A DNA stretch of 64,000 nt, from NCBI GenBank assembly GCA_050998805.1, contig JBPCPV010000050.1:20165-84164 (forward strand). The letters are read 5' to 3'. Under the pieces are notes generated by a model, which saw only the letters and a list, made by a program, of their open reading frames with translations, was not told the origin of the DNA and made no database searches. Source of the DNA: Chloroflexia bacterium (GTDB lineage Bacteria; Chloroflexota; Chloroflexia; QHBQ01; JAICKM01). Numbering within the stretch: the first letter of the stretch is position 1; each line of letters begins with the position of its first letter. Shown piece after piece: positions 4,239 to 50,483 of this stretch. The position numbers and the translations under genes are program-made.

Positions 4239-6152
4239 TCACCTATGCTCACGCTGCTTGCTGCGCCAACGGGCTTCCCGCTTGCGTTCCTCATCAGCTT
4301 CAATGAGCGCTGGCAACCAGGTAATCAGCGCCGCCAGAGCGGTACCCACCGGCAGCAGATAGCCAACGGTGAACGCAATGTGCCCTGCGGACTGCATGAA
4401 GCTGTCCAGGCTGTCGAACCACGAGGCTGCCGGCCGAGCCCAAAGCTCAGGCACCACCGGATCGATCCACCACCAGAATTCCAGCCAGACCGGCCCGGCA
4501 AGCAGGGCAACCATTACTAGCACGAAGCGGATAACAGACCAGCGCTCCTTCCAGTCAGGCTCCGAGTGGATCAGCCACACAATGAACAGAACGAACGGTA
4601 CCAGCAGTGGAGCGAGCGCTGCCCAGGCCGGCCCATGGTAGAGCAAATGCGCGGTGCGGTAGATGATGTCATGATCCGCATTCGGATCCGCGAGCACATT
4701 GGCGATGGCGGGATCCTGGCTCACCCAAAACCAGACCCACGCGGCGATGCCGAGCAGCGCGGCCAGGAACCCGCCGACCGTCAATGCCCAACGACGCCTG
4801 CGCGCAGCCGCGGCTATCTGGAGCCGCTGGGCTTCCGCTTCTTCCTTCCAGCGCTGCTCCTGGGCGGCGCGCTCCCGGGCCGCTATCGCCTGCTCTCTCC
4901 GGCGCTCCTCGGCAGCGGCTTGCTCGGCAGCCTTCTCCTCCTCACGCGCGGCCTCCTGCTCCGCGGTGCGCCGGCGTTCCGCCTGAGCCTCGCGCCGAGC
5001 CCTGGCCCGACGCGCGGCGTTCTCCTGCTTCCGTATACGCTCCGCCTCCGCGGCGGCCTGCCGCTCGGCCTCCAAGCGAAGGGCGCGCGCCTCGGCTTCG
5101 GCCTTCTCCTGCGCGAGGCGCTCGGCCCGCTGCCGGGCTTGCTCACGCGCGGCAGCCATGCCCGGTATCTCGGCCCGGTCGCGGGCCAGGATCTGGAGCA
5201 GGCTCCAGGCGGCATCGTACCAGGGCGTGCTCGCCCGCGGGTCTGGCAGGGTACGTACTTGCCGCCAGACGGGCGCATCGATTGCCCCGCCGACGACTAC
5301 ATCGCGGTAGAGCGCAATCCAGACCTCCCAGTTGGCGAGCGGCGGGTGGCGGGGAATATAGGTGGCCAGCCAGACAGCGAGCTGCTCGGCGCGCCTCTCG
5401 TCCTCGCCGTGCTCGGCATCGAGCACTGTGATCAGCAGCGGCGGCCAGGGGATGCCGAACCGTTCGGCGTGCGCGTCTCCGGCCGCGGCCCGTGCGTAGT
5501 AGCGGATTTTGTCGGCCCAACGCTCGGCGTGCATAGTGCCCCGGTCGTGCTCGTAGAACCAGGTTGGGAAGACGCCTGCGACCATCAGCACGCCGTCAGG
5601 CTCCAGGTAGGTCGCCCGTGTTTCGCCGGGTTCCGCGCGCAAGGAGAGGCGGACTGAGGGCTCACCATACCACTGCGGCGCAAGTTGTGCCAGCAGCCCG
5701 AAAAGCACGGCACGGGCGAACGCGCTGACTTCCAGGAGGTGGCGGGTCTGTGGGTGCAGCACCCGGTCCTCAGACAGGAGCGGAGGGACGCGCCAGACGC
5801 CCATCGCTGGTGAGCGCCGGGGCAGCGCGGCGACTCCGGCGCGCGTGAGGGCGTAGTAATGCCGCCTGCCGCCTGCGGAGCGCCGTGGGTCAACCAGGCG
5901 GGACAGCAGCCCAGCGGCGACCAGCTTACGCAATTGCTCGCTGCGGTTGGCGGGGCTGCCGAAGACGGCGTCATAGTCTGAATCGGTCAGCAACTGTAGT
6001 TCGTAAGTGAGCGCCAGTGCGCGCAGCGCCGCCGGCGAGGGAATGTAGTCGGAATCCCCGGCGGGAACGGAGCGACGGCGCATCGGTTTAGCCCTCCAAG
6101 ATAATCGTGCCGGCGGGTGGTTGGTGGGCTTTGGGTTTGCCCGTGGTTCCAC
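4239..6152 (-). CDS. replication-relaxation family winged-helix N-domain fused to a long E/R/A-rich single-alpha-helix segment and a C-terminal polytopic membrane domain
   Basis: N-terminal LTDSDYDAVFGSPANRSEQLRKLVAAGLLSRL...YYALTRAG. About 100 aa of AEAEARALRLEAERQAAAEAERIRKQENAARRAR... Then 5-6 hydrophobic helices at the C-terminus. Confidence 0.55.
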   Translation of the reverse strand: MEPRANPKPTNHPPARLSWRAKPMRRRSVPAGDSDYIPSPAALRALALTYELQLLTDSDYDAVFGSPANRSEQLRKLVAAGLLSRLVDPRRSAGGRRHYYALTRAGVAALPRRSPAMGVWRVPPLLSEDRVLHPQTRHLLEVSAFARAVLFGLLAQLAPQWYGEPSVRLSLRAEPGETRATYLEPDGVLMVAGVFPTWFYEHDRGTMHAERWADKIRYYARAAAGDAHAERFGIPWPPLLITVLDAEHGEDERRAEQLAVWLATYIPRHPPLANWEVWIALYRDVVVGGAIDAPVWRQVRTLPDPRASTPWYDAAWSLLQILARDRAEIPGMAAAREQARQRAERLAQEKAEAEARALRLEAERQAAAEAERIRKQENAARRARARREAQAERRRTAEQEAAREEEKAAEQAAAEERRREQAIAARERAAQEQRWKEEAEAQRLQIAAAARRRRWALTVGGFLAALLGIAAWVWFWVSQDPAIANVLADPNADHDIIYRTAHLLYHGPAWAALAPLLVPFVLFIVWLIHSEPDWKERWSVIRFVLVMVALLAGPVWLEFWWWIDPVVPELWARPAASWFDSLDSFMQSAGHIAFTVGYLLPVGTALAALITWLPALIEADEERKREARWRSKQREHR

Positions 6153-7447
6153 ATCCGCCAGGCCGCAAGATAGCCAATACTCTTTTACTTGGAATAGTCT
6201 GGTTGCTTTGTTCTCACGCGCTAATTATAGCCGACAAGCACACAAAAAGCAAGAGCGAACTGTAAGCGAGCCTTGATCGCGCACAAGGTATAAGTCAAAT
6301 TACTACAAAAGCATTCAGTCTGGACGCATGTGGACGCTAAATTCTACAGGCTCAAAGCTGAAAGTTGGACGGAAGTAAGTCGTTTTGACCATATTCAGAG
6401 TAGCTATTCCTCCACTTGGCACCACAAATAACCAGACCGTATGAACGTTTGCAGGTAAAGCGAGATCGTCGCCCGTGCCTAAAATCGGGGGTCGGCCGGA
6501 AAGAGATCTCCAGCGCAACCGTGCGACCGTCCCCACACGTCCAGACTGCCTCAGGCTCAAGGCAGGCATAGGGGCAAACCCCGGAGAACGGAGCAGGCTG
6601 ATCCTTCGCTGCATTCAGGACGCCGGCAGCGGCACCCCTGTGGTAGAATTCGGCTCCAAATGGCACAGGCCAGAGATTCTGGCAAACACAGCGGGCGGCG
6701 TAACGCGCAGGGCGAGCGCTAGGGCACGTTCTCGCCCACGCCACGAAACTTGAGTTGCACGACCGGGGGCACACAGGTGGGGCCGCCAGCGTGGCAGGCA
6801 GGTCGACGCCTGAGCGACAGAGATGCTTGGGCAAGTGCGGCATTTATTTGGCCATCAGCACGCCTATCAGGCGGGCAACCTGGATAGGGCGTGCCTGCTA
6901 ACCGCGATGCTCCGGGTACAAAGCGTTATCCGGCGGCTGCCGGAGCAGGACAGCGAACAACCTCTACCGCAAGCCGTAGCCTTGAGCCAGGAATCGCGGG
7001 AGTTATTGCCGAGCCTATGGACGTTTGTGCGGGTGGTGGGCATGGAGCAGAACGACAACCGGGCGGGATAGCTGTTACGCCCAGCGGTGCTCCGGCGCAA
7101 AGGGTGTTTCGGGGTGGCGAACGCAATGGGCAACGAATTTGTGCAACGGCTCTTAACCGTGATGGCGACCGGTCAGCAGGGCGGGGTCTCTGGTCGTTCC
7201 TCGGCGCGGAAGTGCGCTGCCATTGGACCGACAGTCTCGCTCCCCAGTTGTTCGACCTCCCACTGAACCGTTACTCCCGATCAGAAGCAGCCTCATCCTC
7301 AGCTTACGTTACTCCCTCTTCACTCGTCGCCAAATCAACCAGCCCACGAGCAGAACTACAAATACTATGGCAGCATGGCGCGTTCGGCTACGGGGTAGCA
7401 GTCTGTTGGGGAGAGCGCTTTTTCTCCAAAATCCGCCGTTGAAATCA

Positions 7448-7476
7448 TTGACAATTGGATCTTTCTGCCGTATAAT
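7448..7476 (+). promoter_or_regulatory. perfect consensus sigma-70 promoter TTGACA-17nt-TATAAT
   Basis: ttgaca at 7448-7453, a 17-nt spacer, tataat at 7471-7476. It sits ~100 nt upstream of the 7580 operon. Confidence 0.6.
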
Positions 7477-7579
7477 TACGTTAAGCTCCTATCAGGTTCG
7501 GTGCAGAGATTCGCACTGAAGCAGCGGAAGCCAGGAGCGTCAAGAGGCAAACCGAGTCTTTCATCGCAGGTCCAAACAG

Positions 7580-8026
7580 ATGGCGGAAGCAAAGGTTCCA
7601 CAATTAGCACAAACCCTGGCCGAGCCGGGCGATCATCCGGTGGATGCGCCGATCTATTGTGTCATCACTAGATTTGGCCTCCGTAGCTGGCGCTACTTGC
7701 TGCCTACCTACCTCGATTATCGTCGCGTTATAAGGCAGGCACGCCAGACGCAGACGCCTGGACTTCTTCGTTCGGCGTTTCTCGTTGAGAATCCCACGAC
7801 CTGTTATAGCCTTTCTGTCTGGGACAGGCCCGACGCTATCCCCGTTTTCGGAACCAGAGTTCCCAATCACGTCCGAGCCGCCCGCAGAGTCTTTGGGCGG
7901 GTGCCTCTGACGCAGGGCCGTTTGCCTGAAATCTGGGCTACCAAGTGGCGGTTAGCTTCTGTGAGCAATAATCTGAACTGGGACGATTTTGACCTGCGAG
8001 CGTTGCTGCTCGTCGTGAGTGAATGA
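7580..8026 (+). CDS. hypothetical protein, possibly DUF4188-like
   Basis: ORF directly downstream of the consensus promoter. The DUF4188 resemblance rests on recalled pattern only. Confidence 0.4.
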   Translation: MAEAKVPQLAQTLAEPGDHPVDAPIYCVITRFGLRSWRYLLPTYLDYRRVIRQARQTQTPGLLRSAFLVENPTTCYSLSVWDRPDAIPVFGTRVPNHVRAARRVFGRVPLTQGRLPEIWATKWRLASVSNNLNWDDFDLRALLLVVSE

Positions 8027-8047
8027 GCCTGAGCAAGGGAAACGGAA

Positions 8048-8659
8048 ATGCTTATGTTTGGCCAGATAGGAAACTCCGTAGTCAACGACTTCGCCTTGGC
8101 GACTCGGTTCAGCTTAGGCATAGTATTCCTATTCTCAGCTCTACCCAAGCTACGCCACCCGCTCGTATTCGCGCGAAATGTAGTCGCTTATGAAATCCTG
8201 CCTGCCAAGGTCGCTAATGTGTTTGCCTTCATGCTCATTCCTCTCGAAGCCTTCCTGGCAATTGCCTTCTTCACTGGTTGGTTGACAGATCTGGCCCTCC
8301 CCGTTGCTACGGCAGTTTTGATGAGCTTCCTCATAGCCGTGGGAATCAACTTGAGACGGGGCCGAAAGATTTCATGCGGCTGCTTCGAGAACGCGAGCGA
8401 GCGAATCTCAAACCGCACATTGGTTCGGCTGCTGCTGCTCCTATCCGGCGTTCTACTTTCGGTCGTGCTGAGGAACATCGGTGGTTCGGCACTACCCAGT
8501 TTCGGGGCGGTGACCGTTGATGCATCTGTAGCAGTCAATCTACTACTATCAGCACTTCTAGCTGTCTGTATTATTTTAGTCGGTATGTGGATTCTGAGTC
8601 TCCCAGAGTTGGTCTTTCTTGTCCGCCATTTACGCTGGCGTGAGCACAACTCACCTTGA
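8048..8659 (+). CDS. MauE/DoxX-like membrane protein (methylamine-utilisation MauE family)
   Basis: Four hydrophobic helices and the family-typical SCGCFE (DCGCFG-like) motif. Confidence 0.6.
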   Translation: MLMFGQIGNSVVNDFALATRFSLGIVFLFSALPKLRHPLVFARNVVAYEILPAKVANVFAFMLIPLEAFLAIAFFTGWLTDLALPVATAVLMSFLIAVGINLRRGRKISCGCFENASERISNRTLVRLLLLLSGVLLSVVLRNIGGSALPSFGAVTVDASVAVNLLLSALLAVCIILVGMWILSLPELVFLVRHLRWREHNSP

Positions 8660-42603: not shown

Positions 42604-44127
42604 ATGTGGACCGTCAGCCGAAATCGCATAGCGGGTCTGCGAACGCTGCCCGCTGGACTGCTCGTCGCCGGGGTGTTGGCCGTGCTCGCCGCCGTCCTCT
42701 ACGGCAGCCTGCTCGGCGGCTACTTCCTGTCCGACGACTTCGTGATCCTCTCGTGGACGCGGGTTTCGGCGCCCGGTGAGGTGTTGGGGCTGTTCGACCC
42801 GCGCGCGCCCTGGTTCTATAGGCCGATGCTCAAGATGGTCTACTGGGCGCTACAGTCCATCTTCGGCCTGAACCCTCTGCCGTTCCACTTGTTCAACATC
42901 GTGATGCACACACTGGCGGCATGGCTTCTCTACTTCTACGCGAAGCGTGTCGCCGCCGCACGCCCGGCGACCGCCCTCGCCGTGAGCCTGCTTTTCTTCG
43001 TGAACCACCGCCACGCCGAGCCTGTCGCCTCGATCTCGGCGATGGGCGAGCTGATCGCGGTGCCCGCGCTCTTCGGCAGCCTGTTGCTGGCCCACCGCTT
43101 CGTGGAGAGCCGCAGGCCGCCCGCGCTCGCCGCCTCCCTCGGCCTCTTCGCCGTCGCGCTGCTCAGTCGGGAGAGCGCCGTGCTGCTGCCGGTACTGGCC
43201 GCGCTCAGCTTGGCGCTCTTCGCACCTAAACCGCTCGGACGACGGGCACTTGCCGCCCTCGGCACCGGCTATGCCGCGCTGCTCGCCGCCTACGCCCTCC
43301 TACAGCTACAGGTGGTCAACCGGGGCGGAGAGGCCGGCGGCGTACTATCGCGCGGCGGCCTCAGCTTCAAGCCGCTTAATGCCGAGTCGGTCGTGCTCGG
43401 CGTCATGGACTACGCTAACGGCCTGCTGCCCGGCGGCGGGGCGGCGGCCTCACTGGCGCTGGACCAGCTCCGCCCGGTCGCCTGGGCAGAGCTGGGGCTG
43501 CTGCTCGCGCTCGGCGGCGTGCTGGCCCTCACACACCTCAAGCTGATGCTGCTCGGCCTCGCATGGATGCTGGTCAGCCCGCTACCGTTCGTGTTCTTCA
43601 ACGCGCCGACCGACCGCTACTTCTACATGCCGACGATAGGCTACAGCCTGCTGCTCGCGGGCCTGCTGGCCGAGGTCGCCTCCGGCCTGGCGCGGCTGCT
43701 GCGACGCCCGCCGTCGGTCGTGGTGCCCTCGGCACTGGCGGGGGCGGTGCTCGTGCTGCTGCTGCCGCAGGTGCCCGCGCTCTCAGCGAAAGAGGCCCAC
43801 TGGAACGCGGCAGGCGCGCTGTCGGGCCGGGTGCTGTCGAGCATGAAAGCGGCGCTGCCCAACCCGGTGCGCCACCAAGCGTTCCTGTTCGTCGGCCTCC
43901 CAACCGATTTCGAGGGCGTGCCGACCTTCCGCAACGGCATCGTGCAGGCCGTCCAGCTGGAGTACGGCAACGACCTGACGCTCCGCGCGGGCATCACGAC
44001 CTGCGCGGAGGTCCGCCGCACCCGCCCGTCGCCGCCCGACAGCGTGTTCCAGTTCACCGGCAGCGACGTTCGCCTGCTGGCCGACCCGCAAAGCTGTGGT
44101 CTACTTGACAAACCCGGGGGTACGTGA
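42604..44127 (+). CDS. polytopic membrane protein, putative GT-C-fold (PMT/ArnT-like) glycosyltransferase
   Basis: About 10 TM helices, an acidic DDF motif in the first extracytoplasmic loop, and a large C-terminal soluble domain. Confidence 0.45.
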   Translation: MWTVSRNRIAGLRTLPAGLLVAGVLAVLAAVLYGSLLGGYFLSDDFVILSWTRVSAPGEVLGLFDPRAPWFYRPMLKMVYWALQSIFGLNPLPFHLFNIVMHTLAAWLLYFYAKRVAAARPATALAVSLLFFVNHRHAEPVASISAMGELIAVPALFGSLLLAHRFVESRRPPALAASLGLFAVALLSRESAVLLPVLAALSLALFAPKPLGRRALAALGTGYAALLAAYALLQLQVVNRGGEAGGVLSRGGLSFKPLNAESVVLGVMDYANGLLPGGGAAASLALDQLRPVAWAELGLLLALGGVLALTHLKLMLLGLAWMLVSPLPFVFFNAPTDRYFYMPTIGYSLLLAGLLAEVASGLARLLRRPPSVVVPSALAGAVLVLLLPQVPALSAKEAHWNAAGALSGRVLSSMKAALPNPVRHQAFLFVGLPTDFEGVPTFRNGIVQAVQLEYGNDLTLRAGITTCAEVRRTRPSPPDSVFQFTGSDVRLLADPQSCGLLDKPGGT

Positions 44128-44162
44128 TGCCCCCGAATAACGATGAGCGGAGGGAGGTGGCT

Positions 44163-45653
44163 ATGACCGAGTATGCGGTGGTGATCGTCGGAGGAGGTCC
44201 GACCGGGCTGATGTTGGCGGGCGAGTTGGCGTTGGCGGGGGTCAACGTTGCCGTTGTCGAGCGGCGCGCCAGCCAGAACCTCATTGGTTCGCGCGCCGGC
44301 GGTCTGCATTCACGCACCATCGAGGTTCTCGATCAGCGTGGAATCGCCGATCGGTTCCTCTCCGACGGACAGGTGGCTCAGGTCGCGGGGTTCGCCAGCG
44401 TCCGTTTGGACATCAGCGACTTTCCCACCCGGCACAACTACGGGCTCGGGCTATGGCAGAACCACATCGAGCGCATCCTGGCCGGCTGGGTCGGCGAGCT
44501 GGCGGTGCCGATCCACTACGGCATTGAGGTGACCGGTTTCGCGCAGGACGACACCGGCGTCGACGTCGGGCTGTCCGATGGCCAGTCGCTACGAGCGGAA
44601 TATCTCGTCGGGTGCGACGGAGGACGCAGCCTGGTCCGTAAAGCGGCCGGCATCGAGTTCCCCGGGTGGGACCCGACGATCAGCAGCCTGATCGCCGAGG
44701 TCGAGATGACCGAGGAGCCGAAATTGGGCATCCACCGCAATGCCTTTGGCGTCCATGCCTTCGGCAAGGTGGAGTACGAGGTCCGCGACGGCGAGGTGGT
44801 CTACAAGGATGGGGGGCCGGTAGGGGTCATGGTGACCGAAGAGCACGTCGGAGCCACGACCGAACCCACCCTGCGCGATCTCAGCGAAGCGCTCATCGCC
44901 GTATACGGGACCGATTACGGGATCCACAGTCCCACCTGGATCTCCAGGTTCACCGACATGACTCGGCAGGCCGCGGCCTACCGCGACAGACGGGTCCTGC
45001 TGGCCGGCGACGCGGCGCACGTGCATTCCCCGGTCGGTGGACAGGGCCTCAACACCGGTGTGCAAGATGCGGTGAATCTGGGATGGAAGCTGGCCCAGGT
45101 GGTCCACCAGACAGCGCCGGAAAGCCTGCTGGCTACCTACCATGCCGAGCGCCACCCGGTCGCTGCCCGCGTGCTGCACAACACGATGGCGCAAGTCGCG
45201 CTCATGCGCGCCGACGATCGCATCGAGGCGTTGCGCGACACCGTGTCCGAGCTGCTCAGCATGGACGAGCCGCGCAAACGATTCGCCGGAATGATGTCGG
45301 GTCTGGACATCCATTACGACCTCGGCGAAGGACACCCGCTGCTCGGCCGCCGCATGCCCGATCTCGACCTGGTCACCGCCAACGGCCCACTGCGGGTATT
45401 CACCCTGCTGCACGAGGCCCGGCCGGTGCTACTCAACCTCGGTGAGCCTAGCGGCTTCGCCATCAGTCCCTGGGCATATCGAGTGGTGGCGATCGACGCC
45501 AAATATGCCGGCAATTGGGAGCTTCCGGTCCTGGGCCAAGTAGCAGCCCCCACTGCCGTGCTGATCAGACCCGATGGATACGTCGCCTGGGTGGGGGACG
45601 GCACAGATACCGGATTGCGCGACGCGCTGACTACCTGGTTCGGGTCACCATGA
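44163..45653 (+). CDS. group-A FAD-dependent monooxygenase, rifampin-monooxygenase (Rox)/aromatic hydroxylase-like
   Basis: VVIVGGGPTGLMLAGELALAGV dinucleotide-binding motif, DG motif, and GDAAH...G FAD-binding motif. GGAGGGAGG RBS before ATG 44163. Confidence 0.7.
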   Translation: MTEYAVVIVGGGPTGLMLAGELALAGVNVAVVERRASQNLIGSRAGGLHSRTIEVLDQRGIADRFLSDGQVAQVAGFASVRLDISDFPTRHNYGLGLWQNHIERILAGWVGELAVPIHYGIEVTGFAQDDTGVDVGLSDGQSLRAEYLVGCDGGRSLVRKAAGIEFPGWDPTISSLIAEVEMTEEPKLGIHRNAFGVHAFGKVEYEVRDGEVVYKDGGPVGVMVTEEHVGATTEPTLRDLSEALIAVYGTDYGIHSPTWISRFTDMTRQAAAYRDRRVLLAGDAAHVHSPVGGQGLNTGVQDAVNLGWKLAQVVHQTAPESLLATYHAERHPVAARVLHNTMAQVALMRADDRIEALRDTVSELLSMDEPRKRFAGMMSGLDIHYDLGEGHPLLGRRMPDLDLVTANGPLRVFTLLHEARPVLLNLGEPSGFAISPWAYRVVAIDAKYAGNWELPVLGQVAAPTAVLIRPDGYVAWVGDGTDTGLRDALTTWFGSP

Positions 45654-45668
45654 CGCGACGCCGGATTA

Positions 45669-45693
45669 GAGGCTGTGCATTATGAGCAGCCTC
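45669..45693. terminator. 7-bp stem hairpin (gaggctg...cagcctc) between convergent genes
   Basis: Read directly; weak, no clear T-run. Confidence 0.3.
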
Positions 45694-47347
45694 AGCCCAA
45701 GCCGAGAGGCTTCTGATGGGCGGGCGGGGGCGTGGGGAGGGCCGGTGCCTGGCGGAAGGTGCCGAAGGGCCGGGGCATCTGGACCGTCGTGCCGCGCAAG
45801 AGGGCGGCTATCGAGAGGATCTGGATGCGGGGGAAGTCGCCCCAGCTTGCGGAGCTGTAGTAGCCTGCGCTCACGGCCTCGGTGAGCATGTCGCGGGTCG
45901 GCTCCTCGAGGGTGAGGAAGACGCCGATGGTCGCGCCCTCGCGGCCGATGGTACCCACGAGGTCGCGTATGTCGCCGGCTTTGACGTGGCCGGACTTGAC
46001 CTGCACGAGCACCCGCTTGGGCGTGCCGGAGTTGTCGTCAATGAAGGTGATCACGCCGTCTATACCGCGGTCGCTGCCTTTCTTGCCGGTCTTGCTGCCG
46101 GCCTGCCCGCCGAGCGGCTGGGCGTTGATCAGCGAGAGCGCCCACCACTGGAACTGGTAGCGGTCGGCGGCGGCAAGCTCACGCGCCCCGGCGAGGTCCT
46201 CCGGCTCACCCACGATGCTGTACTGCACCGCGTCGCCGAACTGGTCTTTGAGGCGGTACTTCAGCAGGGCAATGGCGAGGTGCGTGAGGTCAATGCCGAT
46301 CCAGGTCCGCCCGAGCTTCTGAGCGGCGATCACCGCCGTGCCGCAGCCCGCGAAGGGGTCGAGTACCACGTCGCCGGGGTTGCTGCTCACCTGGATAATG
46401 CGCTCGAGCAACGCCAGGGGCTTCTGCGTCGCGTAACCGAGGCGCTCGTTTCCGGCCGTCGGCAAGACGTCATCCCAGATGTCTTGTAATGCTACCCCCG
46501 GCATCTCGTCCAGGTAGCGCTTGTAGTTGGGCATCCCAGATTTACTATACACGAGCCGGCCGTCCCGCTCGAATTGCTCCATCTTGGCGCGCGAGTAGGC
46601 CCAATACCGGCCCTGATAGGGCCGCACCCCATGCCATTCGTAGCTAGTATCGCCTCCCGGCTTTGCGGCAGATAGGTCACCTAAACGATAACGGCGCCCT
46701 GTATCGGGATCAACATGGCGGTACATGCTATCGGTATAGTCCGTATCGTAAGGTGTGTACACAGGGTTCCAGGTATACGTCTGGGTCTTTGTATAGAACA
46801 ACAAAATGTCGTGAGTGTGGCCGTAATCCTTCCGCCCCTGTTTGGTGTCGCTATGGGCACTTGACCGCTTCCAGGTGATTTCGCTATGGAAGTTGCGCGG
46901 ATCAAAGATGGCGTCCAAGATCATCTTGAGATAGTGACTCGCCGTCGGGTCACAATGCAGGTAGAGGCTACCGGTCGGCTTGAGGACGCGGTGTAGCTCG
47001 ACGAGGCGCGCGGCCATCATCACGAGGTAGGCCATCATCTGGCTGGGGCCGATGAAGTCGCGGAGCGCGCCGATCATCTTGCCGACATGGGGCGGGCCGG
47101 AGGTGGCGAGGTCGTGGTAGGTGGCCTCGGCGTCCGCGCCCCAGTGCCAGCTGTCCTCGAAGGCGGTGGCCTGCGCGGTGTTCTCTCCGCCCTGCTCGTG
47201 CTTGAACAGCACATTATAGCTGCGGTTCGAGTTGAACGGCGGGTCCAAATACACGAGGTCCACGCTCTCGTCGGCGAAGTACTCGCGAAGGATCGGCAGG
47301 TTGTCGCCGTAGAAGAGGGTGTTTTGAGTGATGTGGCGCTGCGGCAT
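45692..47347 (-). CDS. beta-class N6-adenine/N4-cytosine DNA methyltransferase (DPPF motif IV before FxGxG motif I) fused to a C-terminal Mrr-type (PD-(D/E)xK) restriction-endonuclease-like domain
   Basis: VYLDPPFNS (motif IV), VLDPFAGCGTAV (motif I), C-terminal GSDRGIDGV...VLVQVKSG Mrr_cat pattern. Gene GC ~55-58%, lower than the flanks. Confidence 0.7.
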   Translation of the reverse strand: MPQRHITQNTLFYGDNLPILREYFADESVDLVYLDPPFNSNRSYNVLFKHEQGGENTAQATAFEDSWHWGADAEATYHDLATSGPPHVGKMIGALRDFIGPSQMMAYLVMMAARLVELHRVLKPTGSLYLHCDPTASHYLKMILDAIFDPRNFHSEITWKRSSAHSDTKQGRKDYGHTHDILLFYTKTQTYTWNPVYTPYDTDYTDSMYRHVDPDTGRRYRLGDLSAAKPGGDTSYEWHGVRPYQGRYWAYSRAKMEQFERDGRLVYSKSGMPNYKRYLDEMPGVALQDIWDDVLPTAGNERLGYATQKPLALLERIIQVSSNPGDVVLDPFAGCGTAVIAAQKLGRTWIGIDLTHLAIALLKYRLKDQFGDAVQYSIVGEPEDLAGARELAAADRYQFQWWALSLINAQPLGGQAGSKTGKKGSDRGIDGVITFIDDNSGTPKRVLVQVKSGHVKAGDIRDLVGTIGREGATIGVFLTLEEPTRDMLTEAVSAGYYSSASWGDFPRIQILSIAALLRGTTVQMPRPFGTFRQAPALPTPPPAHQKPLGLG

Positions 47348-47352
47348 GCCGG

Positions 47353-49224
47353 CTACTTGTACTGGCCGATGACAGCCAGGCCGTAGTATGCCTCGAACTT
47401 GGCGGTGTTATCATCCGTATCGGCGGCCAGGCCCCAACTGCCGCTTGTCAACGAGGTGTCCGTGATCTTCGCCACGTTTTGGTCGCTGATCTGGAAAGTC
47501 AACTGGGTGCCGACCATCACGAGGGCGATCTTATTGTAGGCATTAGGCGTGATCGCGGAACTCGCCGCCACCTTGATGATATTCGACCAGTTGCTCGCGA
47601 CTTCTTTGTCGCAGCCGAACTTGCTGTCCTGCGTGATGTAGCAGTAGTACGTATTGTCCTGACTGTTGGTGGTGCTGCTGCGGGCGGCTACGCCCGCGCG
47701 TCCCCCGGCACCGTGGGGCTGCACTGTGGCGACGATGAAGCCATCGGCCAGATCGCTGCCCTCGGTGGGGGACGCGACGGCCCAGAGGTTGGCTTGGTTA
47801 AGGGCGAGCGTGAAGCGGCCGTTGGCGATGGTCCGTGTCGAGTGGGCACCGGGAGTGGTATCCCAGGTGCCCGTCTCCCCTTTGGTAAAGTCGGTCTGGG
47901 AGAGGAATGTAAAGTTCTGGTTCGGGTCGGTCGTCGCGGTCGGGTTTGCCTGGCCGCCACCGCCGTTGCCCTGGTCTCCCGTCGTGGCGGTGGGGTTCCC
48001 CTGGGCACTCCCGCTCACGGGGCCGATGGCGATGAGCTTGCTGGTGGCCGCGCCGCCGGTGCCGACGGCCACTTCGCCTTGCATATACTGCGCCGGCTCT
48101 AGGCGCTGCACCACGATCTTGAGGGGATCGCCATCGGTATGCGAGCGCAGGATGTCGCAGACCTGCTTCTCGCGCGAGGCCGACTGGTCCTGGTAGGAAA
48201 TACTCTTGCCCTCGATCTTCAGAATGAGATCGGACGGGCCGATGCCCGCCTGATCGGCGGGGCTGCCGCTGGCGACACCGGCGACCACCATGCCGTCGTC
48301 CGTGCCGAAGTACTTCTTGTAATCCGCCAGGTTCGGACTTAGGTTCATGCCGATGTAATTGCGGTTTTTGCCCGCCTGCAGATCCTTGATGATCCCCTTG
48401 GCATAGGACATAGCGATGGCGAAGTTGATGCCTTGTTCGCGGTTCCCGCTTGAGTCGATGAAGCCCAGCGTGTTGACGCCGACGACCTCGCCCCGATTGT
48501 TCACCAGCGGGCCACCGGAGTTACCGTGCGTGATCTTCGCGTCGGTCTGGATCAGGTCGTCGTATTGGTCCATCTGGGCGTGGAGCTTCGAGACGACGCC
48601 CGCGCTCACGGTCAAGTCGTTGCCGAGCTCAAACGCCTGCGGATAGCCGAGGGCGACCACGGGCGCGCCCGGATCCAGGGCCGTGCTGTCCCCCAGCGGG
48701 GCCGCCGCCAGCCCGCTCGTGTCGTCCACCTTCAGCACGGCGAGGTCATCACATTCGGCGCGTCCCAGCACCCGCGCCGCCCGGCCGCGGGTACTATTCG
48801 CCTGGTAGATCTGGATGGCCGAGGCGCCCTCGACCACATGGGCGTTGGTGAGAATATAGCCCTTGTCCAAATCGTAGACAATGCCGGTGCCCGCGCCGAT
48901 GCCCTCGGGCTGGATCGCCGTCTCGCCGAAGGTTGATTTCACCCAGACCGTGGCCGGGCGCAAGTCGCGCGCGATCTGCTCGGGCGACTTGGCCGCCGTG
49001 GTCGGCGTGACCGCCGGCACCGTGCTAGTCGGCGGCACGGTCGGGGTGGGGATCGGCGTAACCGTCGGCGGCGCATCGCCGCAGGCGCTCAGCAACAGGC
49101 TCAGCACGACAAGACACCCAAAAAGACACTGGGATGTGCGCGTAACCATGTGATGTTCCCTTTCCGGTAGTGGTCCAAAAGAGAGCATTCCTACGCTTCC
49201 GGCTCTCCGCTTAGAATTATACAC
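47353..49224 (-). CDS. HtrA/DegP-like trypsin-fold serine protease lipoprotein with a PDZ domain and an unassigned ~230-aa C-terminal domain
   Basis: TNAHVV (His), GNSGGPLV (Ser), PDZ GMVVAGVASGSPADQAGI, lipobox LLSAC. Confidence 0.7.
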   Translation of the reverse strand: MYNSKRRAGSVGMLSFGPLPEREHHMVTRTSQCLFGCLVVLSLLLSACGDAPPTVTPIPTPTVPPTSTVPAVTPTTAAKSPEQIARDLRPATVWVKSTFGETAIQPEGIGAGTGIVYDLDKGYILTNAHVVEGASAIQIYQANSTRGRAARVLGRAECDDLAVLKVDDTSGLAAAPLGDSTALDPGAPVVALGYPQAFELGNDLTVSAGVVSKLHAQMDQYDDLIQTDAKITHGNSGGPLVNNRGEVVGVNTLGFIDSSGNREQGINFAIAMSYAKGIIKDLQAGKNRNYIGMNLSPNLADYKKYFGTDDGMVVAGVASGSPADQAGIGPSDLILKIEGKSISYQDQSASREKQVCDILRSHTDGDPLKIVVQRLEPAQYMQGEVAVGTGGAATSKLIAIGPVSGSAQGNPTATTGDQGNGGGGQANPTATTDPNQNFTFLSQTDFTKGETGTWDTTPGAHSTRTIANGRFTLALNQANLWAVASPTEGSDLADGFIVATVQPHGAGGRAGVAARSSTTNSQDNTYYCYITQDSKFGCDKEVASNWSNIIKVAASSAITPNAYNKIALVMVGTQLTFQISDQNVAKITDTSLTSGSWGLAADTDDNTAKFEAYYGLAVIGQYK

Positions 49225-49291: not shown

Positions 49292-49531
49292 ATGGAGTCC
49301 ACCATGACCGAAGTAACGCTGGAAGAAGCACAAACGCACCTGGCCGACCTGATCGCGGCGGTCCGCCGAGGTGAGACTGTGTACATCGTGGGTGACGAGC
49401 AGGATTTGGTTCAACTGGTGCCGGTCAGCGGGGCAGACAACTATCTCCAGTTCGGCAGCGCGCGGGGTTTGATCAGGATGGCGGAGGATTTCGACGCTCC
49501 GCTCGAAGATTTCCAAGAGTACATGGCGTGA
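49292..49531 (+). CDS. Phd/YefM-family antitoxin-like protein
   Basis: VTLEEAQTHLADLIAAVRRGETVYIV...LVPV matches the Phd/YefM N-terminal fold pattern. tagaat -10 at 49274-49279. Confidence 0.5.
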   Translation: MESTMTEVTLEEAQTHLADLIAAVRRGETVYIVGDEQDLVQLVPVSGADNYLQFGSARGLIRMAEDFDAPLEDFQEYMA

Positions 49532-49553: not shown

Positions 49554-49970
49554 ATGGAATTGAACTACTTCCAGACCCTCATCGCGGTGGCCGAGGATTG
49601 CCCGGTTGCCGAGAGTGTGGTGCCGGTGGAACGTGGCGCGAAGAAGACGGTCGCGGCGCTCCAGTACGAGATGCTCGCGGATAGTCCGTATGTCCACACG
49701 CAGGAAGACGTGCTGTTCAACACCTGGCTCGCGCGGCAGGAGATACCGGAGAAGTCCGACGCCGAGGGCGCAGAGATGCGCGCCGAGTTCTTTGCTAAGT
49801 CGCAAGCGTGCTTACGGGCCTCGCCGCTGCCGAAGAAGTACGGCTGGGGCCTGCTCTTCGACGAAGCAGGCAGGGTTGCACTCTGCCCGATGGAGTCGAA
49901 GGAATACAAGCAACTCCTCTTCGGCGGCACCGTAAGGGTGCTCAAGGCCATGCGCTCAAGCCGAATCTAA
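49554..49970 (+). CDS. hypothetical protein (138 aa), candidate non-canonical toxin partner of the Phd-like gene; lower GC
   Basis: Follows the antitoxin-like gene after 22 nt. No recognisable toxin motif. Confidence 0.35.
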   Translation: MELNYFQTLIAVAEDCPVAESVVPVERGAKKTVAALQYEMLADSPYVHTQEDVLFNTWLARQEIPEKSDAEGAEMRAEFFAKSQACLRASPLPKKYGWGLLFDEAGRVALCPMESKEYKQLLFGGTVRVLKAMRSSRI

Positions 49971-50483
49971 CACCCGCGCCTACTCCATTCGGAGTATCTT
50001 TGCCCCCAAGCCCGCCGGAACCCCCCAAATCTGGCAGTAAACGACCCCTGAAATGGATATTAAAAGTGAGAGGGTAAAATTAGCGCGGCCAAAACGCCCT
50101 ACTGCGTGCCTAAAAGAGCAGTCACCCGGCCCCGCATCCACAAGGTTCCCGGTCGCTTTTCGCCGGTTTCCCAAAAATACTCCGATCGGAGTATCCGTCA
50201 GCATCGTACCCAGCCGCACAGGGAGGATCAACATGTACACCTCAACCCGTACCGCACTCCGCACTCCGCACCGATAACACTTTGCCCGCTTCGTGCCTGG
50301 ATCGCCGTTTTTCGTCTATCGAATCGACGTCTAGGCACGAATTATCGGAATTATCGACTTTCGGGAGGGGTAGCCCACGTAAGGCCGTGCCTGGAACCGG
50401 CTCCTCACGAGCAAAAGAGGCCCTTTTTTGATCGGCTTCCACCAACTCTTATCAGTTTTGCCCAACGCACTACGCACTACGCG

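Follow-up and report, generated by a model that had tools for sequence, protein, structure and literature searches.

Type IIC/IIG restriction-modification (R-M) enzymes such as MmeI, BpuSI and TstI carry a methyltransferase, a target-recognition region and a PD-(D/E)xK nuclease in one chain encoded by a solitary gene, and their methyltransferase is of the gamma class. In Type III systems such as those of EcoP15I and Mbo45V, the Mod subunit is a beta-class N6-adenine methyltransferase whose variable recognition centre lies between conserved ends and is shuffled as a cassette between alleles, and an adjacent res gene encodes the helicase-nuclease subunit Res. The Type IV enzymes Mrr, MspJI and AspBHI join a nuclease domain to an N-terminal modification reader and have no methyltransferase. 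CcrM, a beta-class N6-adenine methyltransferase with one fixed specificity and a role in the cell cycle, has an extra C-terminal domain behind a linker. This domain is SAND-like and non-catalytic, and in the CcrM dimer it works in trans on the non-target strand (PMC6787082). The Type ISP enzyme LlaGI likewise combines its R-M functions in a single polypeptide, and its nuclease shows the motifs E, D-x-G-x-D and Q-x-K of the Mrr family (PMC2790908); a further source gives it an N-terminal nuclease, a superfamily 2 (SF2) helicase motor and a gamma-class methyltransferase (PMC2790903). Here we analyse a gene in a 64,000-nucleotide stretch of DNA from a Chloroflexia bacterium (GenBank assembly GCA_050998805.1, contig JBPCPV010000050.1, positions 20,165 to 84,164; hereafter the window) whose product is a Mod-type methyltransferase fused to an Mrr-family nuclease, and we consider it moderately probable that this protein is a solitary single-polypeptide R-M enzyme.

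The open reading frame (ORF) comprises 551 amino acids (aa) and a stop codon and occupies positions 45692-47347 of the window on the minus strand, as do all of its parts described below. An identical protein is present at NCBI as MGI8589126.1, named 'MAG: DNA methyltransferase [Chloroflexia bacterium]', where MAG stands for metagenome-assembled genome. A first-pass annotation of the window had reported this ORF as a beta-class methyltransferase covalently tied to an Mrr-type nuclease fold. The ORF exists as reported, every string quoted from it (DPPF, LDPFAGCGT, GSDRGIDG, QVK and TLEEPT) is present on translation, and both the methyltransferase class, on the evidence of Pfam and motif order, and the fusion to an Mrr-type fold, on the evidence of Pfam, hhalign and a fold match, were confirmed. 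The full-length AlphaFold model has a predicted local distance difference test score (pLDDT) of 78 and a predicted template modelling score (pTM) of 0.72.

The methyltransferase half is matched over aa 29-356 by the Pfam family PF01555 (N6_N4_Mtase; 138.1 bits against a cut-off of 26.7, E = 5.6e-40). It begins with a catalytic lobe (aa 1-135; 46943..47347) that holds motif IV, D35-P-P-F38 (47234-47245), continues through a variable central segment (aa 136-300; 46448..46942) and closes with an S-adenosylmethionine (SAM)-binding lobe (aa 301-375; 46223..46447) that contains the stretch TQKPLALLERI (46397-46429) and motif I, LDPFAGCGT (aa 329-337; 46337-46363), the coordinates of both motifs having been checked by translation. 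The order of motif IV, variable centre and motif I (F332-x-G-x-G336) is that of the beta class. Residue conservation was assessed in an alignment of 84 homologs unless stated otherwise, and in all 84 of them DPPF and the FxGxG residues F332, G334 and G336 are unchanged.

The best structural matches of the full-length model found with Foldseek were Type III Mod proteins (EcoP15I, 4zcf; 6k0w; Mbo45V, 7dsu), followed by the beta-class Type II adenine methylases RsrI, MboIIA, CcrM and M.BceJIV. In sequence matches to PDB and NCBIfam, the adenine enzymes (M.BceJIV, MboIIA, CcrM and Mod) ranked above N4-cytosine enzymes, and this ranking and the Asp-Pro-Pro-Phe form of motif IV indirectly suggest that the target base is adenine rather than N4-cytosine. 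The MTase_III profiles of PADLOC also match. The nearest relatives without the nuclease domain, which are encoded on Spirosoma, Sphingobium and Tunicatimonas plasmids and are 35-46% identical over aa 9-381, each have as the next gene one encoding a protein of 880-977 aa with a ResIII helicase domain, and two of these three ResIII proteins have in addition a C-terminal TnsA-like nuclease domain. The operons of these three relatives are classical mod-res operons, and the methyltransferase half is therefore Mod-like. Structure, PADLOC profiles and mod-res relatives thus all identify a Mod-type methyltransferase and show its Mod ancestry.

The remainder of the folded protein (aa 376-520; 45788..46222) is an Mrr-family nuclease domain by Pfam, hhalign, AlphaFold, Foldseek and residue conservation. 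PF04471 (Mrr_cat) scores 32.8-35.3 bits over aa 397-487, where its cut-off is 21, and PF22722 (NA-iREase1) scores 34.6 bits over aa 422-492, where its cut-off is 27. Profile-profile alignment to Escherichia coli Mrr with hhalign gave a probability of 87.7% (E = 3.4e-6) and paired SDRGIDGV with GDGGIDGV of Mrr, VQVK with VQAK, and F399-Q400 with F-E. The model of this domain (pLDDT 83) matched MspJI best (E = 1.3e-5) and then EcoO109I, AspBHI, BamHI and Ecl18kI, and a search of PDB sequences with the nuclease-domain profile gave no meaningful match. The putative active site consists of motif I, F399-Q400 (46148-46153), motif II, G424-S-D426-R-G-I-D430-G (aa 424-431; 46055-46078), and motif III, Q449-V-K451 (aa 449-451; 45995-46003), the latter two checked by translation. 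The Mrr-specific upstream Asp, the motif II pattern D-x-G-x-D (D426-R-G-I-D430), the motif III Lys (K451) and the Gln of QxK (Q449) are all present. The motif I Glu that should follow the conserved Phe is absent, Q400 standing in its place.

LlaGI provides an experimental reference for this arrangement. Its D74A, D78A and K94A mutants are inactive, whereas E38A in motif I and Q92A in motif III are partly active; D74 is the Mrr-specific Asp, lying four residues before the catalytic Asp and linked to it through a Gly (PMC2790908). Using the D-x-G-x-D spacing and the hhalign pairing with Mrr, we mapped LlaGI D74, D78, K94, E38 and Q92 onto D426, D430, K451, Q400 and Q449, respectively. All 84 homologs have the same residue at D426, D430, V450, K451 and G453, and only two active-site positions vary, namely 400 (Gln in 45, Glu in 39) and 449 (Gln in 60, Ser in 24). 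The trio that is essential in LlaGI is thus the invariant trio, and the pair that LlaGI tolerates as mutants is the variable pair, a pattern that selection for catalysis would predict. We also looked in these 84 homologs for compensatory covariation of positions 400 and 449 and found none, all four residue combinations being present. The first-pass annotation had suggested looking for the Mrr catalytic residues in an alignment and comparing the C-termini of close homologs; the Asp and Lys are invariant, and the close homologs keep the same C-terminus. This conservation argues against a decayed or purely DNA-binding nuclease domain.

The same annotation had described the nuclease as being of a modification-dependent type, and this description is not supported. 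The motif is that of an ordinary PD-(D/E)xK subfamily, LlaGI, which shares it, cleaves unmethylated DNA (PMC2790908), and the N-terminal sensing domain of Mrr is absent. A separate modification reader (Mrr_N or SRA) had no Pfam match in this protein, whose other domain is an intact methyltransferase. The protein therefore resembles Mrr, MspJI and AspBHI in its catalytic-domain subfamily and in its D...QxK site, PD-QxK being the catalytic site of MspJI according to a review (PMC12707154), and differs from them in that its only DNA reader would be the recognition cassette of the methyltransferase.

This putative cassette, the central segment aa 136-300, is the most variable part of the protein, with a mean identity to the query of 45% compared to 55-65% elsewhere. 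In a Caldilinea aerophila MAG (locus L036), two tandem paralogs (5023-6603 and 6566-8257) share 95-100% of their residues across the N lobe, SAM lobe, nuclease and tail and only 40% in the centre, which indicates a swap of the recognition cassette between neighbouring copies. Among the 84 sequences, 33 cross-genome pairs show the same mosaic, their flanks being at least 80% identical and their centres at most 55% identical (minimum 26%). Similar flanks around divergent centres point to cassette exchange and diversification of specificity, and we infer that aa 136-300 is an exchangeable target-recognition cassette. Type III mod alleles and Type I hsdS genes are well-known examples of the same pattern. 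Loci L037 and L058 likewise hold at least two copies of the fusion gene each.

The central segment also has an unusual base composition, which bears on an earlier proposal that the gene was horizontally acquired. This proposal was based on a GC content of 55-58% in a 67% background, and neither the figures nor the conclusion was sustained by our measurements. The GC content of the gene is 0.633 compared to a window mean of 0.640 (38th percentile of windows of the same length), and its GC content at third codon positions (GC3) of 0.839 is accompanied by values of 0.829 and 0.802 in the neighbouring genes for an HtrA-like protease and a monooxygenase. The low composition is confined to the centre (aa 161-290; GC 0.551, GC3 0.654). 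Across the family, the GC3 trough extends over roughly aa 136-300, and in 80 of 83 homologs (96%) GC3 is lower in the centre than over the remainder of the gene, with a mean difference of -0.19 and an extreme of -0.49. The offset is about -0.2 in every bin of host GC from 0.42 to 0.70 (Spearman 0.00), and it holds for each amino acid taken separately, with a composition-controlled difference of -0.204 that is negative in 94% of homologs.

These measurements exclude three explanations of the trough. Low GC as a signal of transfer was rejected because the dip is family-wide, occurs in every host-GC bin and is found within every amino acid; import of the cassette from a lower-GC pool was rejected because genes from hosts with a GC content of 42-50% still show an offset near -0.2; and amino-acid composition was rejected as the cause by the per-amino-acid control. 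A candidate cause is weaker selection or weaker biased gene conversion acting on a fast-turnover cassette in a background of AT-biased mutation. The trough is a caution against taking local low GC as evidence of recent transfer.

To see whether the fusion protein has a regular partner, neighbouring ORFs were clustered over 81 loci (80 homolog loci and the window). No neighbour family was present in more than 14 loci and none was consistently adjacent, and the largest clusters were generic (ABC transporters, CoA-transferases and dehydrogenases). Three contexts annotated with Pfam differed from each other, one holding an IS66 transposase, another a PemK toxin and an M19 peptidase, and the third a helix-turn-helix (HTH) regulator, an alcohol dehydrogenase and a caspase-like peptidase. 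A Res gene, the regular neighbour of Type III mod, was found neither in the window nor in any of the 81 loci, none was conserved across them, and none was present in the three annotated contexts; likewise, a separate nuclease partner was not conserved over the 81 loci and did not appear in those three contexts. The window shares no neighbour with the homolog loci except for a distant HtrA-like gene in locus L053. The lack of a conserved partner and of synteny, together with a neighbouring toxin-antitoxin (TA) candidate that scores below threshold (see below), suggests that the gene is a solitary one-gene unit with no evident islet around it.

The fusion had been thought an uncommon pairing, an expectation that database searches overturned. 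At least 8000 matches were found among 5.8 billion proteins, and the best 120 are all ~550 aa long and 62-75% identical to the query and all carry PF01555, PF04471 and PF22722. When one genome per species was taken, at least 595 loci were found. The phyla listed include Chloroflexota, Acidobacteriota, Actinomycetota (among them Streptomyces barkulensis and Actinomadura sediminis), Alphaproteobacteria (Reyranella, including R. massiliensis), Verrucomicrobiota, Gemmatimonadota and others, and one MAG of a Thermoplasmatales archaeon is also a carrier. An exhaustive search with the nuclease-domain profile reached 4591 representative clusters with E<=1e-3, 497 of them with E<=1e-30, and among the matches listed the domain is almost always at or near the C-terminal end. 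Full-length copies occur in 9 plasmid records, for example Mesorhizobium japonicum pMLa, where the homolog is MAFF_RS35095, and in 28 phage records, of which those listed are all temperate Streptomyces phages. In Streptomyces phage Werner the copy is gene 48 (L081, 5971-7614), two genes from the serine integrase gene. The phage copies have SVK in motif III and FE in motif I, and they could represent a prophage-encoded exclusion system or an anti-restriction methylase. The gene of the window is thus one unremarkable representative of a very large family, and Pfam and generic annotations already reveal which domains this family contains. Literature searches for the fusion, for its Pfam pair and for NA-iREase1 returned no description, and we could not find an account of a family layout in which a Mod-type beta-class methyltransferase with a swappable cassette is followed by a C-terminal Mrr nuclease and a clamp-like tail and Res is missing.

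The presence of both folds, the invariant catalytic residues, the shuffling of the cassette and the lack of a partner lead us to favour a single-chain R-M enzyme, at the moderate level of confidence stated above. Diversification of specificity, as seen in the tandem paralogs and the mosaic pairs, is typical of R-M enzymes, and plasmids and temperate Streptomyces phages also carry the family. According to this proposal, the N-terminal 375 aa would act as a Type III Mod-like beta-class N6-adenine methyltransferase whose cassette (aa 136-300) reads the target, and the protein would methylate and so protect the target sites of its host. The tethered nuclease, itself without a domain for reading DNA, would cut at or near unmethylated target sites such as those in incoming phage or plasmid DNA. 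The protein probably acts as a dimer, as do Mod and other beta-class enzymes, and the directly fused nuclease would substitute for the Res helicase-nuclease subunit. Catalysis, dimerisation and the self-protection logic are predictions of this proposal. Of the two functions offered by the first-pass annotation, a single-chain R-M enzyme or a methylation-sensing defence protein, the former remains the best explanation and the latter is left without an Mrr sensing domain to carry it.

The proposed enzyme would share with Type IIC/IIG enzymes the combination of methyltransferase, target recognition and PD-(D/E)xK nuclease in one chain and the solitary gene, and it differs from them in its beta-class Mod-like methyltransferase and its Mrr-subfamily nuclease. 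In BpuSI the nuclease is N-terminal, whereas here the methyltransferase is N-terminal and the nuclease C-terminal. LlaGI is likewise a single polypeptide with the same Mrr-family motifs, but neither the N-terminal placement of its nuclease nor its helicase motor and gamma-class methyltransferase is found here. The likeness to Type III systems, which extends from the methyltransferase class to the shuffled recognition centre, ends at the nuclease, which is of the Mrr family and is fused in cis after the SAM lobe, so that ATP-driven two-site communication is unavailable to this protein. CcrM resembles it in being a beta-class N6-adenine methyltransferase with a linker and an extra C-terminal domain, and differs in the SAND-like, non-catalytic nature of that domain.

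Several observations weigh against the R-M proposal. The 'inactive'-nuclease profile NA-iREase1 slightly outscores Mrr_cat. Q400 occupies the position of the motif I Glu of Mrr and LlaGI, and the motif III Gln is replaced by Ser in about a quarter of the family, so that in some members the nuclease could be weak, a nickase or non-catalytic. The database names of the homologs are just 'DNA methyltransferase' or 'restriction endonuclease', and the copies in phages might simply serve as anti-restriction methylases. A further difficulty lies in the logic of protection. If a Mod-type enzyme modifies a single strand of an asymmetric site, replication would produce daughter sites that lack methylation. 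Type III systems handle this problem through Res-mediated two-site control; an enzyme without Res, including the protein analysed here, would have to be safeguarded in another way, as is the case for the MmeI family.

The C-terminal tail (aa 521-551; 45695..45787), probably disordered, is modelled with low confidence (pLDDT 31-34) and is poorly conserved, with a mean identity of 28%, yet Q545 is at least 90% conserved. It ends in Q545-K-P-L-G-L-G (aa 545-551; 45695-45715), a short motif resembling those that bind the sliding clamp. The bacterial clamp-binding motif QL(S/D)LF is usually C-terminal and reportedly tolerates much variation (PMC9690074). We scored a pattern consisting of Q-x-x-[LFM] followed, directly or after one residue, by a hydrophobic residue, no more than 3 residues from the C-terminus. 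Of the divergent homologs 46 of 84 had this pattern and of the close ones 88 of 121, compared to 1.6% of 1213 ORFs from the same loci and 1.6% of shuffled tails (odds ratio 76), and it was absent from all three non-fused Mod relatives. Short clamp-binding peptides at or near the C-terminus are found in the clamp-stimulated nucleases NucS/EndoMS and MutL and, as a PCNA-binding motif, in Dnmt1, and in these cases the clamp brings the enzyme to newly replicated DNA or enhances its activity there (PMC9690074). The tail motif (QxxLGL or QxxLF) differs from these precedents in that position 2 is rarely Leu and that only 55-73% of members match. We regard it as a lead towards a candidate beta sliding-clamp-binding site. 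A separate observation concerns the Type III Res protein encoded at L091 5845-8775 (Sphingobium sp. MI1205 plasmid pMI3), which ends in QAKFVF and fits the pattern; this is a single case against a 1.6% background and may be due to chance.

A more speculative addition to the R-M proposal is that the flexible tail would dock on the beta sliding clamp, either for recruitment to replicating DNA or for sliding. In its full form, the protein would be a Res-less descendant of a Type III system in which the nuclease is fused to Mod and the clamp takes the place of the ATP-driven Res motor by way of recruitment, one-dimensional sliding or activation of the nuclease. We think this rather unlikely as a whole; literature searches found no paper that connects the sliding clamp with R-M enzymes or with bacterial methyltransferases, and no report of a clamp-coupled R-M enzyme.

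The tail is also compatible with readings in which the protein does not restrict DNA. It may be an orphan methyltransferase whose nuclease fold serves as a DNA-binding or dimerisation module, comparable to the added C-terminal domain with which CcrM holds the non-target strand (PMC6787082), and whose tail couples maintenance methylation to the replication fork as the PCNA motif does in Dnmt1 (PMC9690074). The solitary gene, the lack of a partner nuclease, the presence of Q400 for the motif I Glu and of Gln or Ser at position 449, NA-iREase1 as the top-scoring nuclease profile and the enrichment of the clamp-like tail would all agree with this. A domain that only binds DNA, however, needs no invariant D426, D430 and K451 (84 of 84 homologs), the residues essential for LlaGI cleavage, and the recognition cassette is shuffled, with tandem paralogs and copies on plasmids and phages, whereas the housekeeping orphan methylases Dam and CcrM have a fixed specificity. 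Nor is the extra domain of CcrM a nuclease fold; the idea that it is a degenerate nuclease was considered and rejected, given its SAND-like structure. On balance the orphan-methylase reading appears doubtful, to about the same degree as the clamp-driven Type III descendant.

Still less likely, in our judgement, is a replication-coupled methyl-directed nickase, in effect Dam plus MutH in one chain, whose recognition cassette would locate hemimethylated sites behind the fork and whose nuclease would nick the unmethylated daughter strand in the service of repair or strand discrimination, with the clamp recruiting or activating it. The clamp-binding-like tail and the precedents of clamp-stimulated PD-(D/E)xK and MutL nucleases (PMC9690074) point in this direction, and the weakened periphery of the active site (Q400, Gln or Ser at 449) resembles LlaGI mutants that accumulate nicked DNA. 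Shuffled cassettes, a patchy distribution and carriage on plasmids and phages are ill-suited to a core repair function, and no mismatch-sensing partner is conserved. The least probable reading, to which we give hardly any weight, is that of a Type IV-like or methylation-sensing protein whose Mrr-type domain attacks foreign methylated DNA. Its basis is that the closest nuclease families by Pfam and fold (Mrr, MspJI and AspBHI) are mostly modification-dependent. Mrr and MspJI, however, read modification with a separate N-terminal domain (a winged helix or SRA) that this protein lacks. The catalytic motif is a generic one, and LlaGI uses it to cleave unmethylated DNA (PMC2790908; PMC12707154). 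An N6-methyladenine writer would moreover attack its own product at its target sites. A paper on Haloferax HVO_A0006 concerns the N-terminal fragment of a Type IIG enzyme and has no bearing on this family.

The genes around the fusion gene had been grouped with it into a small accessory or defence islet, together with an HtrA-like protease, a Phd-like TA pair and a Rox-like monooxygenase. The HtrA-like protease gene (Trypsin_2 and PDZ domains; 47353-49224, minus strand) and the FAD monooxygenase gene (44124-45653, plus strand) are indeed the neighbours. The HtrA-like gene and the fusion gene run in the same direction and are separated by 5 nucleotides (ccggc; 47348..47352, minus strand) between the stop codon of the former and the ATG of the latter, and from this gap and orientation the two are probably co-transcribed. 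The protease has a C-terminal extension of ~240 aa without a Pfam match. Its trypsin domain also matches the PADLOC profiles RT-Protease and LmuA, probably through generic protease similarity. Neither the HtrA-like protein nor P0044 had a match by exact look-up. The monooxygenase meets the NCBIfam model PRK06834 (917.8 bits against a cut-off of 625) and, at 469.6 bits against 800, stays well below the equivalog model for rifampin monooxygenase, so that its likeness to Rox holds at the level of the family and not of the equivalog.

The proposed TA pair did not fare as well. Its antitoxin candidate, a VapB/Phd/DUF2281-like ORF of 79 aa (49292-49531, plus strand), is below every curated cut-off (VapB, 44.5 against 60; DUF2281, 26.1 against 26.5; Phd, 18.8 against 29.8), and its partner, 22 nucleotides downstream, is a DUF6157 protein of 138 aa (49554-49970, plus strand; E = 1.3e-47) that is of toxin size but matched no toxin family and nothing in PDB. 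DUF6157 is not a known toxin; the two genes do not make up a canonical TA pair but could form an undescribed two-gene module. Further along, in a gap of ~510 nucleotides that is poor in ORFs and lower in GC and lies between the DUF6157 gene and a gene for a PIG-V-like mannosyltransferase, an 18-nucleotide palindromic motif, TACTCC(A/G)(T/A)TCGGAGTATC, occurs twice (49981-49998 and 50178-50195, 197 nucleotides apart). The pair has no Rfam match and could be an operator or a pair of small hairpins.

Taken as a recently acquired multi-gene unit comprising the HtrA-like protease, the TA pair, the monooxygenase and the fusion gene, the islet is improbable. In its favour, the region from 44.1 to 50.5 kb has a GC content of 0.59-0.65 compared to 0.69-0.70 in the flanking glycosyltransferase and guaA genes, and the HtrA-like gene is linked to the fusion gene by the 5-nucleotide gap. 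The fusion gene itself, however, has a GC and GC3 typical of the window, the neighbours do not recur beside homologs apart from the distant HtrA-like gene in L053, and the antitoxin is below threshold with a partner that is no known toxin. No integrase, transposase or tRNA gene was found within ~20 kb, tRNA and Rfam scans around the gene gave nothing, and insertion scars, flanking repeats, promoters and terminators around it were at chance level only. With no conserved neighbour in the 81 loci and no synteny, the notion of a defence islet is not upheld.

The family deserves attention for its abundance, its apparent lack of characterisation and the clamp lead, while rarity, low GC and an islet do not survive as reasons. 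If the R-M proposal is correct, several thousand genes labelled 'DNA methyltransferase' would be complete one-gene R-M systems carried by Chloroflexota, Acidobacteriota, Actinomycetota and other phyla as well as by plasmids and temperate phages. Defence catalogues would then be missing the family, and methylome studies would be counting its members as orphan methylases. The layout of a Mod-type methyltransferase, a swappable cassette and an Mrr nuclease differs from that of characterised single-chain enzymes and could give new programmable specificities, and the clamp-like tail, if real, would tie restriction-modification to the replication machinery.

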